Source: a virus (Duplodnaviria; Heunggongvirae; Uroviricota; Caudoviricetes). From it: a stretch of 5,046 bases of DNA. The position numbers were made by a program, and so were the translations under genes. Below the pieces are notes generated by a model that saw only the letters and a program-made list of their open reading frames with translations, had not been told where the DNA came from and made no database searches. The stretch is from the IMG/VR virus record IMGVR_UViG_2671180636_000004. One strand, given 5' to 3'. Of this stretch, positions 1,946 to 5,046 are shown piece by piece. Each line of letters opens with the position of its first letter. Position 1 is the stretch's first letter.

Positions 1946-2329
1946 NNNNNNNNNNNNNNNNNNNNNNNNNNNNNNNNNNNNNNNNNNNNNNNNNNNNNNN
2001 NNNNNNNNNNNNNNNNNNNNNNNNNNNNNNNNNNNNNNNNNNNNNNNNNNNNNNNNNNNNNNNCAATGCTTACCTGCCAGTGACATGAATGTCATACCGA
2101 CTACATAATAATCTACTAATAAATCGTGCAAATCGCTGTTGTTCTTTTTCAGACGGGCCATGCACCCGCAAATAATCATCGCGTCATCGTCACAACATTG
2201 CGGGCGAGATTTTACTTTTGAAGTAATTAATCCCTTAAAACCGGCGGCAATGGACGACCAGGTCACATCTTCATGATTATTAGCCGCCCACGCTCCCCAA
2301 CGCTCAAGAACCATCTGAATATCACGCAT
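1946..2329 (-). CDS. quuD: Late-gene antiterminator Q (DLP12/phage 82-type Q family); 3' part masked, end estimated from recalled length of about 127 aa
   Basis: Visible 2064-2329 translates to [64 protein letters not shown]..., with a Cys-rich segment. ATG at 2329-2327 is preceded by GGAG at 7 nt spacing. The track ORF begins at an in-frame TTG at 2344 (MWSKLM...), but the ATG at 2329 with an SD is the more plausible start. Position immediately downstream of rusA/ylcG matches lambdoid gene order. Confidence 0.8.
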
Positions 2330-2414
2330 CAACTTACTCCACAAAAATCAGACCAGAACGCCAATTACAAGCAAAAATCAACAAAACAGTATTAGTTGAT
2401 TGTTATCTCTGACT

Positions 2415-2555
2415 TCATACTCCTGCTCCTGTCAGGGTTTTGGCGTAATTCTTCAGTATTCGGTAATCGGTCAAAACAGAACCGGGGAAACGATATAAGC
2501 GCAGATGCCCCCAGCGGTGGCGAAGAAGTTCTGCCATATAAAACTCAAACATCAT
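2415..2555 (-). CDS. ylcG: Small 46-aa protein between rusA and Q (YlcG-like); below the ORF-track cutoff, found by hand translation
   Basis: Minus-strand ORF reads [46 protein letters not shown]. Its ATG (2555-2553) overlaps the rusA stop TGA (2554-2552) in an ATGA arrangement. Length and position match what I recall for DLP12 ylcG; the sequence identity itself is not verified. Confidence 0.5.
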
Positions 2556-2938
2556 TCATTCCCCATTTCGGTGATGGTCAGTTCCAGCCTCCCACCTTTG
2601 GTAACAGGCATCTTCACAACGCGGTAATCAACGACCTGAGCATCATCCAGCCAGAAACCTGCTTTGGTGAGTGCGTCAAAAGCGGCTTTTTGCAGATTAT
2701 CCAGGTCACGGCGACGGCGATCCGGCATGTGGCACTCAATACGGATTTTCACTGGCATAGCCAGGCCGATATCCAGCATTGCGTTTTTAATGATTCGGGT
2801 GACGTTATCGCGGTATGCCTGCCCTTCTGCGCTGATGTGTGTGCGCCCGCGATTATGGCGGTAATAGCGGTTATTGCTCGGAGGCCAGGGNNNNNNNNNN
2901 NNNNNNNNNNNNNNNNNNNNNATGCTGTAGGTATTCAC
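2552..2938 (-). CDS. rusA: Holliday-junction resolvase RusA (crossover junction endodeoxyribonuclease)
   Basis: Translation MNTYS[masked][30 protein letters not shown]...[63 protein letters not shown] matches RusA as I recall it. Start codon is GTG at 2938-2936, overlapping the ybcO stop (GTGA). Codons 2891-2921 are N-masked. Confidence 0.9.
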
Positions 2939-3225
2939 GCCTTAATAACCCCCTCTTTCAGCCAGATAACCTGCGTTCTCGCCATACCTTCCAGCGCGCA
3001 TTCTTTTGCATACTCAGCATCGACAAAATATGTGCGGCGGTCGATTTCGTCGTGACAGGCAGAACATGCAATGGTGGCAATCAGGTCTGGCGGTTTGATA
3101 CCGGTACCGCACAATCCAGCCAGCCGGATATGTGCCAGTACTGACGTTTCAGGATTGCCATTACATACGCCAGGGATTCTTACCTGGCATTCCCGACCAC
3201 GCGCTGCTTTTCTCAAATCAGCCAT
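2935..3225 (-). CDS. ybcO: YbcO-like prophage protein (DUF1364 family, putative nuclease), 96 aa
   Basis: Translation [99 protein letters not shown] at 3225-3223 is preceded by GGAGG (complement of 3230-3234). The track ORF extends to an upstream in-frame start at 3264, but the SD-supported ATG at 3225 is preferred. Stop TGA at 2937-2935. Confidence 0.85.
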   Translation of the reverse strand: MADLRKAARGRECQVRIPGVCNGNPETSVLAHIRLAGLCGTGIKPPDLIATIACSACHDEIDRRTYFVDAEYAKECALEGMARTQVIWLKEGVIKA

Positions 3226-3388
3226 GATTCCTCCTTGCTGCCAGTCGCAACCATTTTTTATCAACCAGGCTAGCGGTATATCCGAGCAGTGTTGGTATTT
3301 CGGATGGCTTCAGCTCAGGCTTACGCTTACGACGATTTGATACTCTGTAGATGTGCCCGTTCATGACACGAATAAGCGGTGTAGCCAT
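3218..3388 (-). CDS. ninE: NinE-like small protein, 56 aa; not in the ORF track, found by hand translation
   Basis: Minus-strand translation from ATG 3388-3386: MATPLIRVMNGHIYRVSNRRKRKPELKPSEIPTLLGYTASLVDKKWLRLAARRNHG*. AGGAGG SD lies upstream. The start overlaps the ybcN stop (TAATG) and the stop TGA (3220-3218) overlaps the first codons of ybcO. Confidence 0.75.
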   Translation of the reverse strand: MATPLIRVMNGHIYRVSNRRKRKPELKPSEIPTLLGYTASLVDKKWLRLAARRNHG

Positions 3389-3843
3389 TACGCCTCCTGC
3401 TTATCGCGCAGCTGCTGGTATTCACAGCTCTGCAGAATTGTCAGGTGGCAGCCGATATTCATCGCCCAGGCTTCGACTTTGCACAGGAAGATGTACATCT
3501 CGCCGGTTTCCAGCTCTGACGTATGGCGGAGGGATTGGACGGTGGTGACCTCGCCGGACACGACATCTACACGGTCTTTGCTTTCGTAGCCGAGATAGGT
3601 GTGCTTCATCGCGTCTTTGACCCACTCAGGCGTAGCGAAGGTCTTGCCGCGGGCGATGAGATATTCGCTGATCTCCGTGTACCACATGTGGCTGAGCGCG
3701 TTCTGCGACAGGCTGCGCTTCTCGCGCCACGGCTTAACCTGCAGGCGTAAGCATTGCCCGGCATCCAGCAATGGCTGAATCTGCTGGCCGATGGCCGCGA
3801 AGTTACCGCGATGGAGTTTGATGCCGTCTACTGGCAGAGTCAT
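3388..3843 (-). CDS. ybcN: YbcN-like prophage protein (DLP12 nin-region protein, reported DNA base-flipping protein), 151 aa
   Basis: Translation MTLPVDGIKLHRGNFAAIGQQIQPLLDAGQCLRLQVKPWREKRSLSQNALSHMWYTEISEYLIARGKTFATPEWVKDAMKHTYLGYESKDRVDVVSGEVTTVQSLRHTSELETGEMYIFLCKVEAWAMNIGCHLTILQSCEYQQLRDKQEA. ATG at 3843-3841 is preceded by GGGAGG. Stop TAA at 3390-3388. Confidence 0.85.
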   Translation of the reverse strand: MTLPVDGIKLHRGNFAAIGQQIQPLLDAGQCLRLQVKPWREKRSLSQNALSHMWYTEISEYLIARGKTFATPEWVKDAMKHTYLGYESKDRVDVVSGEVTTVQSLRHTSELETGEMYIFLCKVEAWAMNIGCHLTILQSCEYQQLRDKQEA

Positions 3844-3935
3844 ACGGCCTCCCTAACGGAAACCGCAGAATGCAGAAAATCGCAGGTGCATTTCTGCATC
3901 TGTGACAAGGTGATGAGTTCAGATTGTGGTCGCAT
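3840..3935 (-). CDS. Small 31-aa ORF translationally coupled to ybcN (possibly the ylcH equivalent); hypothetical
   Basis: Hand translation of the minus strand: MRPQSELITLSQMQKCTCDFLHSAVSVREAV*. ATG at 3935-3933 is preceded by AAGGGGA. Its stop TGA (3842-3840) overlaps the ybcN ATG (ATGA). Too short for the ORF track; assignment is positional only. Confidence 0.4.
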   Translation of the reverse strand: MRPQSELITLSQMQKCTCDFLHSAVSVREAV

Positions 3936-3954
3936 TTAAGTCCCCTTAAATGCG
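3931..3954. repeat. Inverted repeat (10-bp arms CGCATTTAAG / CTTAAATGCG, 4-nt spacer) covering the SD and start codon of the ylcH-like ORF at the GC-normal/AT-rich junction
   Basis: Read directly from the sequence; arms are exact reverse complements. No U-tract on either strand, so it is not a canonical intrinsic terminator. Confidence 0.5.
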
Positions 3955-4107
3955 CAGAAGTCACCGGAGTTGTTCAGGCTCCGATGAGAGGATTATGGCG
4001 GATTGATTACGATAAATCAAAACTATCTTGAAGCCAAAACAGTGATCTTCGCTTTAAAAACCTTGTATACTTTCACCTAATCACAGCCAGAACTATGGAT
4101 CTAACCA

Positions 4108-4485
4108 ATGACCAACAAAGAAAACAAAGATAAATATATTAACAAGTTCAAGAAAGAGCTTTCAAAATATATACAACCAACTGCTGGAGTGGACATTCAA
4201 TTATTTAACTCTAAGGATGGTGGTGGTGTAATTAAAGCCACTTTGAATAGAAGTGGAAAAAGAAAATCATCTATTGCTGGTAATTTTACTAAATTAGGTG
4301 AGGCAATTACCTCGAGTGGGCAGAGGGTTTTTGGTGGTGATCTATCAAATGTGAATTTTTACGGAACAAATACGATTTTTGATGGAGATACAATATTTTT
4401 AATTAAATCACCTGATTCAGAGGAGTGGTCATCACAAAAAGCTTCCAAAGACGTAGAGGGCATCGTATTTGGAGGGAAAAAATGA
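4108..4485 (+). CDS. Hypothetical protein, 125 aa, lysine-rich N-terminus and Gly-rich motifs (GGGV, FGGD, FGG); no recognisable family; first gene of the AT-rich cassette
   Basis: Uninterrupted 126-codon frame in AT-rich DNA, where stop codons are frequent by chance, so a long open frame is unlikely to be random. The upstream in-frame codon 4102-4104 is TAA, so ATG 4108 is the first possible start. Only a weak SD-like GGAT lies 7 nt upstream. No hydrophobic N-terminus, so probably cytoplasmic. Confidence 0.6.
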   Translation: MTNKENKDKYINKFKKELSKYIQPTAGVDIQLFNSKDGGGVIKATLNRSGKRKSSIAGNFTKLGEAITSSGQRVFGGDLSNVNFYGTNTIFDGDTIFLIKSPDSEEWSSQKASKDVEGIVFGGKK

Positions 4486-4567
4486 TTAACATTACTACTA
4501 AGGATGCACTCAAGTCAGTGGTGAAGTAAGAGATCTAGTAATTCTTCTTGAAACTGATGGAAAAACG

Positions 4568-4909
4568 GTGTCTGATTATTTGCAGCCAATCCCTCCCAAA
4601 AAAGATACACACTGGAGCATGATTTTCATTCCGGTAGCAATTTATATACTACTTAATCTTGTATACATTATTGCTCACCCATTATTTCCTGAAAAATATC
4701 TAAAAACATCAACATCTATATTTCTATTCATTTCCTTCATATTAAGTGCAATAGTAGCATATTTTGTTTTCCATAAGCATAAATCTGCCACTCTATCCAT
4801 ATGCAGCTTAGTGTTCTTAGTGTTAATTGTAGGTGCTAACGTAGGGTTTATCAGTTACAGCGACCTAACACAAAAAGCGACGCAAAAATTAGATAGTTTG
4901 TCTAAATAA
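4568..4909 (+). CDS. Hypothetical small integral membrane protein, 113 aa from GTG 4568 (or about 96 aa from ATG 4619), three predicted transmembrane helices; second gene of the AT-rich cassette
   Basis: Open frame in AT-rich DNA on the same strand, 82 nt downstream of the previous ORF. Three hydrophobic stretches of about 19-20 residues (MIFIPVAIYILLNLVYIIA, SIFLFISFILSAIVAYFVF, LSICSLVFLVLIVGANVGFI) are separated by short charged loops. The first in-frame start is GTG 4568 (weak GGA 6 nt upstream); the alternative ATG 4619 has GGAG only 1 nt upstream, so the true start is uncertain. Confidence 0.6.
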   Translation: MSDYLQPIPPKKDTHWSMIFIPVAIYILLNLVYIIAHPLFPEKYLKTSTSIFLFISFILSAIVAYFVFHKHKSATLSICSLVFLVLIVGANVGFISYSDLTQKATQKLDSLSK

Positions 4910-4916
4910 TTATGTT

Positions 4917-4937
4917 GCCATGCGAAGTATGCATGGC
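4917..4937. repeat. Inverted repeat (7-bp arms GCCATGC / GCATGGC, 7-nt loop) 8 nt downstream of the cassette's second ORF; possible weak terminator or binding site
   Basis: Read directly from the sequence. No adjacent T-tract, so a terminator role is uncertain. Confidence 0.35.
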
Positions 4938-4951
4938 TGCATGTCTGCCTT

Positions 4952-4964
4952 CCATTTAAAATGG
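4952..4964. repeat. Perfect 13-bp palindrome CCATTTAAAATGG; function unknown
   Basis: Read directly from the sequence (6-bp arms around a central A). Confidence 0.35.
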
Positions 4965-5046
4965 GCTAAGACCTATAACCCTAAATATTATTCTTTATTA
5001 TCTTCTTTACCACTTCGGTGATGCTGCCAACTTACTGATTTAGTGT

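Follow-up and report, generated by a model that had tools for sequence, protein, structure and literature searches.

A decayed copy of a mobile two-gene cassette, encoding a soluble and a membrane protein, between P and the nin genes of a lambdoid prophage

The stretch of DNA analysed here (5,046 nucleotides, hereafter the window) carries near its right end a decayed copy of a two-gene module that encodes a small soluble protein (ORF1) followed by a membrane protein (ORF2). As a structural description it is near-certain that the two genes form a real, conserved, horizontally mobile and accessory unit. The copy in the window is a pseudogenised remnant in a cryptic prophage riddled with insertion sequences, and it is probably inactive: ORF2 is frameshifted before its conserved N-terminal domain, and the adjoining replication gene P is cut by IS1. 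For the intact family we tentatively favour, as a reading that falls somewhat short of probable, a role in conflict, with the soluble protein controlling an effector in the membrane; any likeness to Rex would be one of logic alone.

The cassette is flanked by replication gene P on one side and by the first gene of the nin region on the other, and it lies far away from the prophage's XRE-type repressor. GC content is 34.7% at 4023-4988 versus 50.6% in the nin genes at 2064-4022, and the drop that the sequence-only reading had noticed near 4000 is real; it falls at the same place, about 4022, as a mosaic boundary at which homology to cassette-less DLP12-type prophages ends. On the right, the P gene of a related contig (L001, 7040-7753) aligns to the window from 4988, and homology to L001 stops at 5017, where IS1 begins. 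Contig L017 runs on from the end of the window into the IS1 insA reading frame, and the insertion has split off the remainder of P from its last codons. The flanking features are as follows.

3388-3843, minus strand: ybcN (NinB-like), context at the start of the nin operon, left of the insert.
3840-3935, minus strand: ylcH-like small ORF, also context at the start of the nin operon, left of the insert.
4023-4107, plus strand: left edge of the insert and upstream region of ORF1, where homology to cassette-less prophages has ended (about 4022).
4988-5016, minus strand: last nine codons and stop of replication gene P, the right insert boundary in the L001 alignment.
5017-5046, plus strand: the outermost 30 nt at the left terminus of IS1 (GGTGATGCTGCCAACTTACTGATTTAGTGT), which interrupts P at its 3' end.

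ORF1 lies on the plus strand, against ybcN, ninE, ybcO, rusA and Q, which agrees with the earlier claim that the cassette opposes the nin/Q operon. The view of this position as an accessory slot was upheld as well: the cassette is a self-contained unit (a moron) in a place whose content varies among related prophages, being ybcM/ybcL in K-12 and a recombinase in O157 NE92. In one relative the same P-nin slot also carries colicin/immunity and DndB-like genes. An Rfam search of 3800-5046 (E <= 1) returned no non-coding RNA.

The first gene was found intact, as had been read from the sequence. Two features were assigned to it.

4042-4071, plus strand: weak candidate sigma-70-like promoter (-35 GTGATC at 4042-4047, 18-nt spacer, -10 TATACT at 4066-4071).
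4108-4485, plus strand: ORF1, intact, 125 aa, basic (pI 9.5), with neither a TM segment nor a signal-like hydrophobic stretch.

ORF1 matched phrog_18061 over profile positions 1-125 of 125 (E = 9.3e-85) and belongs to a family of uncharacterised proteins of about 125-130 aa (111 representatives at 50% identity clustering). Its ribosome-binding site is weak. The candidate promoter agrees with the consensus at 8 of 12 positions, a score below the threshold of the promoter-scan tool, and is for that reason missing from the tool's listing. The -10-like hexamer is kept in position in divergent copies (TAGTAT in L028, TATAAT in L039), and the 4042-4071 element may act as the promoter of the cassette. 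Comparisons by hhalign gave neither an internal duplication in ORF1 nor similarity between ORF1 and the N-domain of ORF2.

For the second gene the earlier gene model had to be replaced. It had been read as a 113-aa gene starting at GTG 4568; that frame is a remnant of a 142-aa gene that starts at ATG 4482 and is frameshifted at 4506.

4471-4476, plus strand: Shine-Dalgarno sequence GGAGGG, 5 nt before the ORF2 start ATG at 4482, read from the sequence.
4482-4529, plus strand: 5' fragment of ORF2, reading MINITTKD and then, out of frame, ALKSVVK and a stop; relatives read MINITTKDGTQVSGEV...
4506, plus strand: frameshift site, where one G of a GG doublet is absent (GATGGCAC in relatives, GATGCAC here).
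4508-4909, plus strand: 3' remainder of ORF2 in another frame, with the rest of the N-domain and the three TM helices.

Of 18 prophage contigs, 16 have an intact ORF2 of 142 aa, as do annotated E. coli genomes, and its ATG, at window position 4482, overlaps the ORF1 stop (ATGA). The Shine-Dalgarno sequence supports this start, which is the one annotated in relatives. In the pairwise alignment of the window with L001, from which the frameshift was called, one G is absent at 4506, so that the ORF2 frame ends at TAA 4527-4529 after 15 codons; L017, of the same lineage as the window, shares the lesion. The stretch 4568-4909 is what follows the first in-frame GTG of the remainder. Restart of translation at this GTG is unlikely, as it has no Shine-Dalgarno sequence and its product would lack the N-terminal domain, where conservation within the family is highest. 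Programmed frameshifting at 4506 was rejected: the site has no slippery motif, 16 of the 18 relatives are in frame, and an independent ORF2 frameshift in contig L025 points to ordinary decay.

The remnant in the window matched phrog_16940 at positions 30-142 of 142 (E = 2.2e-74), the 29 missing profile positions being those lost to the frameshift. Since both PHROGs are annotated 'unknown function', membership is uninformative on function. Topology prediction gave three TM helices for ORF2, as in the sequence-only reading; in the numbering of the intact 142-aa protein they span residues 47-65, 79-97 and 106-124. The short N-domain is acidic (pI 4.9) and would be cytoplasmic in a putative N-in/C-out topology, and the loop after TM2 is basic and conserved.

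Both genes are under strong purifying selection, with dN/dS of 0.07-0.09 among intact relatives (0.07-0.08 for ORF1) at dS of up to about 2-2.8, and full-length homologues with a conserved partner gene extend down to 20-35% identity. The missing family annotation, the weak ORF1 ribosome-binding site and the weak promoter match would fit chance reading frames in AT-rich foreign DNA, but DNA of 35% GC disfavours long ORFs, and the low dN/dS, the distant homologues and the matching partner profiles described below already refute this explanation, to which we give practically no credence.

The pair was present in 11 of 11 independent contexts sampled, each time as an ORF1 homologue followed directly by a membrane partner; the two genes were never found apart in these contexts. 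The partners have 125-188 aa with a soluble N-domain and three TM helices, and the genes usually overlap by 1-17 nt. Three distant partners matched the ORF2 profile (E = 4e-31, 4.5e-26 and 1.7e-8). The carriers are lambdoid prophages with differing flanks, one HK97-like prophage, a ColE2-type Rep/Mob plasmid in which the pair is directly beside the Rep gene, a TrwC/TraG conjugative element in which a caspase-like peptidase adjoins the pair, and chromosomal islands with PIN, DUF4160/DUF2442 or Xre-MbcA genes. These non-prophage carriers (plasmids, conjugative element, islands) reach distant phyla. In one context a ThsA-like SIR2 protein (E = 4.6e-32) is encoded about 1.3 kb downstream of the pair; scans of eight other neighbour proteins gave no matches, and a recognisable defence gene was seen in only one non-prophage context. 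In contig L039 a separate colicin/immunity pair, distinct from the module, lies nearby.

One family member departs from this arrangement. It carries the ORF1-like domain in fusion with an HNH nuclease (E = 1.3e-12) rather than paired with the membrane protein, and it is a single cluster seen on 1.6-kb contigs only. A nuclease in place of the membrane partner fits a sensor with swappable effectors.

Natural copies with one broken gene were found in both directions. ORF2 is broken and ORF1 intact in the window and L017 and, independently, in L025; ORF1 is interrupted by IS1 and ORF2 intact in L002 and L030 (L002 has its IS1A transposase annotated at a site other than that of the IS1 in the window). 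Disrupted reading frames, which the sequence-only reading had held to speak against a functional module, thus characterise the window copy (ORF2 frameshift, IS1 in P) but not the family. The disrupted copies indicate that the module is dispensable, and because the window copy is a remnant, experiments need an intact allele such as that of E. coli A7 (NZ_CP028767, about 1326100-1327120).

These single-gene disruptions bear on the hypothesis that the pair is an addiction module of toxin-antitoxin type that stabilises its carrier, the 3-TM protein being a toxin checked by the soluble protein, or the reverse. Such a role would suit a pair of small genes that overlap, the soluble protein being encoded first, their strict co-inheritance, the position directly beside a ColE2-type plasmid Rep gene, and neighbours of toxin-antitoxin type (PIN, DUF4160/DUF2442, Xre-MbcA). 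However, copies with only ORF1 intact and copies with only ORF2 intact both exist in nature, so that neither protein is obviously lethal alone and strong constitutive toxicity is disfavoured, with the reservation that IS1 may be polar on ORF2; nor did either protein show similarity to known toxin or antitoxin families. We consider addiction unlikely, and note that toxin-antitoxin and defence functions are not mutually exclusive.

The HK97-like prophage bears on a further alternative, a non-conflict accessory role in lysis timing, membrane or envelope physiology, or conditional host fitness. There the pair shares its strand with the phage genes and lies just upstream of the lysis cassette, so the antisense moron arrangement is not universal. 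This position speaks for such a role, as do the non-defence cargo (ybcL/ybcM) in the K-12 slot, the lack of any known defence domain and the fact that most neighbours are not recognisable as defence genes. However, the lambdoid copies are not beside lysis genes: the lysis genes essD/rrrD are in another part of the prophage and do not adjoin the module. ORF2 and its partners matched no holin family in Pfam, and matches to holins in BFVD were weak (E about 1). The spread over prophages, plasmids, an integrative and conjugative element (ICE) and islands is moreover typical of selfish or conflict cargo, and we regard a non-conflict role as improbable.

Searches of Pfam, NCBIfam and PADLOC with both proteins and their wider families gave sub-threshold noise (for example 7TMR-DISM_7TM, 22 bits against a cutoff of 29) and nothing significant. 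In PADLOC-DB v2.0.0, which covers defence libraries to 2023, ORF2 and its partners had no match and the ORF1 family had isolated matches only, each seen in a single one of its 78 members (E 0.002-0.009). Profile searches of PDB sequences with both families returned no matches. The earlier statement that neither protein resembles a recognised family was therefore confirmed in Pfam, PADLOC, NCBIfam and PDB sequences, the PHROG matches being to families of unknown function. Structure prediction added little: the models gave no informative fold match, and that of ORF1 was of low confidence (pLDDT 58). INPHARED phages yielded no match by DNA or tblastn, PLSDB none for the plasmid-type homologue, and the GTDB species representatives none. 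ORF2 and its partners did not match Colicin_im, and there is no colicin gene in the window. The accessions and PHROG identifiers were absent from the literature searched and from the DefensePredictor supplements; a description in Brenes & Laub 2025 is possible.

We hypothesize that the intact cassette is a translationally coupled pair that produces a small basic cytoplasmic protein and then an inner-membrane protein. Lambdoid prophages carry it in the hypervariable P-nin slot as a moron that runs against the early-right operon, and its own weak promoter would allow expression in the lysogen. The soluble protein would sense or regulate the membrane protein, presumably by direct interaction, and the membrane effector would compromise the membrane, so that a phage or other mobile element entering the cell is aborted or excluded. 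The sequence-only reading had placed the cassette among superinfection-exclusion, abortive-infection or toxin/immunity modules. This is plausible and is modestly strengthened by the mobile carriers, the HNH fusion and the SIR2 neighbour, but the findings do not tell defence apart from addiction or some other role at the membrane. The constant pairing, the purifying selection, the variability of the slot, the pI values of ORF1 and the ORF2 N-domain and the basic loop after TM2 also count in favour of the conflict hypothesis. Against it count the lack of PADLOC matches, the single recognisable defence gene among the non-prophage contexts, the restriction of the HNH fusion to one cluster, the uninformative structural models, the same-strand arrangement in the HK97-like prophage, the weak promoter and the dispensability shown by the disrupted copies.

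The closest parallel is RexA/RexB of lambda, likewise a two-gene unit of lambdoid phages that pairs a soluble protein with a multi-pass inner-membrane protein of about 140 aa, with expression expected in the lysogen and a proposed logic in which a sensor gates a membrane effector. The differences are substantial. ORF1 has 125 aa whereas RexA has 279, and ORF2 has three TM helices and a conserved N-domain in contrast to the four TM helices of RexB. The cassette sits in the P-nin slot, unlike Rex, which is in the immunity region and co-transcribed with cI, and it also occurs on plasmids, ICEs and islands far outside lambdoid phages. ORF1, ORF2 and their wider families had no match above noise to the Pfam-A and PADLOC libraries, which presumably include Rex models. 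At the P-nin position taken by the insert, lambda carries ren, a gene linked to Rex.

A second comparison is with the effector modules of CBASS, Pycsar, retron and Thoeris systems, in which a small TM effector lies beside a soluble partner on mobile carriers. Their effectors are swappable, and one variant of the cassette has an HNH fusion for the TM partner. Unlike these systems the cassette has no signalling enzyme, reverse transcriptase, NTPase or known sensor domain, and the PADLOC TM-effector models did not match it (best E = 0.17). A broader form of the conflict hypothesis is that the family is a new system spanning phyla that acts against phages or plasmids by abortive infection or exclusion. 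The ORF1 domain of about 125 aa would be its sensor or regulator and would work with interchangeable effectors, usually a 3-TM protein docked through its conserved cytoplasmic N-domain but, in one lineage or more, an HNH nuclease to which it is joined in cis. We view this broader form as possible but rather doubtful.

Membrane proteins of prophages that exclude superinfecting phages (Sie proteins) are a well-established kind, and inner-membrane exclusion that blocks phage DNA entry, with ORF1 as an accessory factor, was weighed as a further explanation. It would suit a small inner-membrane protein encoded in a prophage moron and, in lambdoid prophages, transcribed independently of the lytic operons. 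P22 SieA, T4 Imm/Sp and HK97 gp15 resemble ORF2 in being small inner-membrane proteins, encoded in prophage accessory loci. Unlike the cassette, with its strictly conserved soluble partner, these proteins act alone; the conserved domain of ORF2 is cytoplasmic by prediction, and neither protein has sequence similarity to described families, Sie proteins included. The same pair is also found beyond phages, in distant phyla, where small mobilisable plasmids, one conjugative element and chromosomal islands carry it, and an ORF1-like domain that comes fused to a cytoplasmic HNH nuclease suggests that the action is inside the cell. A DNA-entry block of this kind appears quite unlikely. Should the intact module prove to act in defence or exclusion, it would be a new and very compact system (about 0.9 kb) that combines a sensor-like domain of a new type with a simple effector in the membrane and that distant bacteria carry on prophages, plasmids and conjugative elements, and the P-nin junction of lambdoid prophages would be a cargo hotspot worth mining. 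The intact family is a reasonable candidate for experiments.

Downstream of ORF2, the convergent ORF2-P intergenic region contains two hairpins.

4917-4937, unstranded: palindromic hairpin GCCATGC-N7-GCATGGC, 8 nt past the ORF2 stop.
4963-4981, minus strand: terminator-like hairpin with a T-rich tail, 7 nt past the P stop codon.

The segment 4908-4990 has a predicted fold of -23.2 kcal/mol (z = -3.3) on the plus strand and -22.6 kcal/mol (z = -2.65) on the minus strand. The 4963-4981 hairpin is possibly a tR2-type terminator of the early-right operon.

The window comes from a DLP12-type lambdoid prophage and is 99.95-100% identical, outside its masked N runs (112-568, 1563-2063, and 2891-2921), to L017, an IMG/VR contig of the same lineage. 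The lengths of these runs differ from the matching sequence in L017 and in the E. coli A7 contig L001, with the 501-N run standing for ~335 nt, so that collinearity of the window coordinates with the source genome is lost across the runs. GC content falls from 50.6% (2064-4022) to 34.7% (4023-4988), confirming the drop that the sequence-only reading had placed near 4000, and the change falls at a mosaic breakpoint at ~4022. The ybcN/ylcH region is common to ~2,700 complete E. coli genomes (~77-79% identity) only up to ~4022, and the AT-rich insert was present in just 46 of 5,426 genomes. The following features were located:

+ strand of the window: porin gene
Minus (-) strand of the window: quuD, ylcG, rusA, ybcO, ninE, and ybcN (NinB-like)
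4108-4485, + strand: ORF1, intact
4482: true ATG of ORF2, preceded by GGAGGG at 4471-4476
4963-4981, - strand: terminator-like hairpin with T-rich tail, 7 nt past the P stop codon
4988-4990, - strand: stop codon of replication gene P, right end of the insert
5017-5046, last 30 nt of the window: left end (left inverted repeat) of an IS1, inserted nine codons short of the P stop

Upstream of ORF1 only a weak promoter-like element was seen (GTGATC, 18 nt, TATACT; 4042-4071), and the position of the candidate -10 is kept in divergent copies. Strong structure marks both strands of the convergent 78-nt spacer separating ORF2 from P (z = -3.3 and -2.65), and the terminator-like hairpin within it lies at the position of lambda tR2.

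The second ORF had been read as 4568-4909, and this gene model had to be replaced. Its match to PHROG 16940 begins only at profile position 30, and in intact relatives PGAP annotates a 142-aa protein (WP_000608370.1) whose ATG overlaps the ORF1 stop codon. Alignment of the window with L001 revealed that one G is absent at 4506 (GATGGCAC to GATGCAC), and as a result the ORF2 frame stops at 4527-4529, after MINITTKDALKSVVK. The part lost is exactly the first 36 residues, the most conserved part of the protein. The lesion is common to L017, and contig L025 carries an independent 1-nt frameshift; disruption, which the sequence-only reading had named as counting against it, applies to this copy but not to the family, an intact 142-aa ORF2 being present in 16 of 18 prophage contigs. 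The IS1 in P continues in L017 (8910-9140), where it breaks off after ~220 bp, with insA cut short at ...KIIDI; unrelated sequence lies beyond. The frameshift and the two IS1 findings together place this copy in a decaying, IS-riddled cryptic prophage, and the module is pseudogenised in the window. Another IS1 end is found upstream of the porin gene (L017 3434). Such IS density is, in our impression, typical of Shigella. The exact ORF1 sequence is recorded also in Shigella sonnei.

Another two contigs, L002 (E. coli CV839-06; 6319-7016) and L030, have an IS1 within ORF1 at about codon 49 and an intact ORF2, an independent event that mirrors the lesion in the window. This combination may be used to argue against a simple toxin-antitoxin relationship. 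An addiction module is a less likely identity for the pair than the conflict role favored below, and natural copies with either partner alone disrupted weaken it.

Both genes are under strong constraint. When the E. coli allele was compared with copies whose proteins are 92%, 76%, and 67% identical to it, dN/dS was 0.07-0.09 for ORF1 and ORF2 alike, with dS reaching ~2-2.8. These values uphold both ORF1 (4108-4485) and ORF2 as real genes and exclude chance ORFs. ORF1 is basic (pI 9.5) and without a hydrophobic segment, and its low-confidence AF2 model (pLDDT 58, pTM 0.61) has the topology alpha-beta-beta-alpha-beta-beta-alpha. The N-domain of intact ORF2 (residues 1-45, pI 4.9) is acidic and was modelled at low pLDDT as a beta-hairpin and a helix; three confidently modelled TM helices follow (47-65, 79-97, and 106-124). 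Under the positive-inside rule, the KK that precedes TM1 and the KHK loop that is invariant behind TM2 would favor an N-in/C-out topology.

The close families were seen only in Enterobacteriaceae (E. coli, Shigella sonnei, Enterobacter, and Klebsiella). When the ORF1 alignment was used for an exhaustive profile search, 111 cluster representatives scored E <= 1e-3 and 30 of them E <= 1e-10; almost all are full-length (120-135 aa), and they share the motif F-x-G-T-N ... I-x-L-I-K ... W ... A-x-x-D-V. We examined genomic contexts of distant members at 20-42% identity. In every one, a gene of 125-188 aa directly followed the ORF1 homologue, usually overlapping it by 1-17 nt, and encoded three hydrophobic helices after a short N-domain that is soluble; co-occurrence of the pair thus held throughout. 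The ORF2 profile matched three distant partners (E = 4e-31, 4.5e-26, and 1.7e-8). The other partners have the architecture in common, together with the basic loop after TM2 and a motif of the form VEGTxEE(I/V)(K/R)D(L/F) ... (Y/F)(L/I/F) in the N-domain. No conserved third gene was found in these contexts. ORF1 and ORF2 form a mobile two-gene module that is conserved and translationally coupled.

The earlier statement that neither protein resembles a recognised family was borne out. No protein of the pair or the wider families reached curated thresholds in Pfam-A or NCBIfam or matched PADLOC v2.0.0 (defence libraries to 2023), and PHROGs labels both families as of unknown function. Searches of PDB sequence profiles with either protein, and of Rfam, returned nothing, and both proteins were absent among ~50,000 isolated phage genomes. 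The structural check gave the confident TM helices of ORF2, and fold searches with the predicted models were uninformative. Accessions and PHROG identifiers were absent from the literature searched (the Brenes & Laub 2025 screen lies outside it) and from the DefensePredictor supplements.

The pair was found in these carriers:

DLP12-type lambdoid prophages: between P and ybcN
Other lambdoid prophages: differing flanks, same P-to-nin position, opposite strand
Lambdoid contig L028: DUF1367/ybcO/rusA/Q on one side, lambda-P on the other
Lambdoid contig L039: slot shared with a DndB-like gene, an HNH gene, and a colicin/immunity pair
HK97-like temperate phage: flanked by the replication/integrase genes and by the lysis cassette, same strand as the phage genes
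Small plasmid L003: ColE2-type Rep (Replicase E = 2e-44, plus PriCT_1), MobC, and relaxase
Small plasmids L011 and L012: only a PriCT_1 Rep fragment visible, upstream
Conjugative element (TrwC/TraG): caspase-like peptidase upstream
Chromosomal islands: adjoining PIN, DUF4160/DUF2442, or Xre-MbcA genes
Metagenomic contig L008: ThsA-like SIR2 protein (E = 4.6e-32) 1.3 kb downstream

The slot itself varies, K-12 having ybcM/ybcL there and O157 NE92 a recombinase. Further cargo besides the pair occupies the P-to-NinB slot of L039 (GCA_030132385.1; 7665-9348 and 11850-12971), including a 377-aa protein that weakly matches a pore-forming colicin domain and an adjacent colicin-immunity-like gene. This cargo suggests a general hotspot for cargo or conflict genes. 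One 447-aa protein (P0104; L040 246-1589), known only from 1.6-kb contigs of metagenomic runs, joins an ORF1-like domain (1-120) to an HNH endonuclease (191-231, E = 1.3e-12); its C-terminal ~200 aa have no assigned family.

Because many unrelated mobile elements carry the pair, because it sits in a cargo hotspot, because defence or TA genes occasionally neighbour it, and because an HNH-fusion variant exists, we tentatively favor a role in conflict, in which ORF1 would act as a regulator or sensor and the membrane protein as the effector under it. Of the sequence-only reading, the observation holds in part and the interpretation has partial support: the pair is a conserved mobile accessory module in a cargo slot, for which a defence role would be plausible, and the window copy is broken; the function is our inference. 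Superinfection exclusion by blocking injection is improbable, since the pair has non-phage carriers, its conserved domain is cytoplasmic, and an ORF1-like domain occurs fused to HNH; we consider a non-conflict membrane function just as improbable. The closest functional analogue is lambda RexA/RexB, likewise a soluble protein and a small polytopic membrane protein of a lambdoid prophage. The two systems are unlike in homology, protein sizes, number of TM helices, and genomic position, so that the likeness is one of analogy, not of membership. The pair is a legitimate uncharacterised family and a moderately interesting candidate among many such, and any test needs an intact allele, the window copy being broken.

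Downstream of the distant pair in L008 (1164-3141) are three genes, encoding a 178-aa protein that by eye may contain a PD-(D/E)xK-like motif (unsupported by Pfam), an NTP pyrophosphatase resembling Ham1p, and the ThsA-like SIR2 protein; this stretch may be a separate defence locus. PADLOC gave zero matches for eight other unknown neighbour proteins. In intact relatives (L001, 9674-12144) an ImmA/IrrE metallopeptidase and a DUF4411 gene directly follow the XRE-type repressor, and a YdaT-toxin-domain gene adjoins the replication genes. These genes, which lie outside the window, are candidates for other accessory modules.
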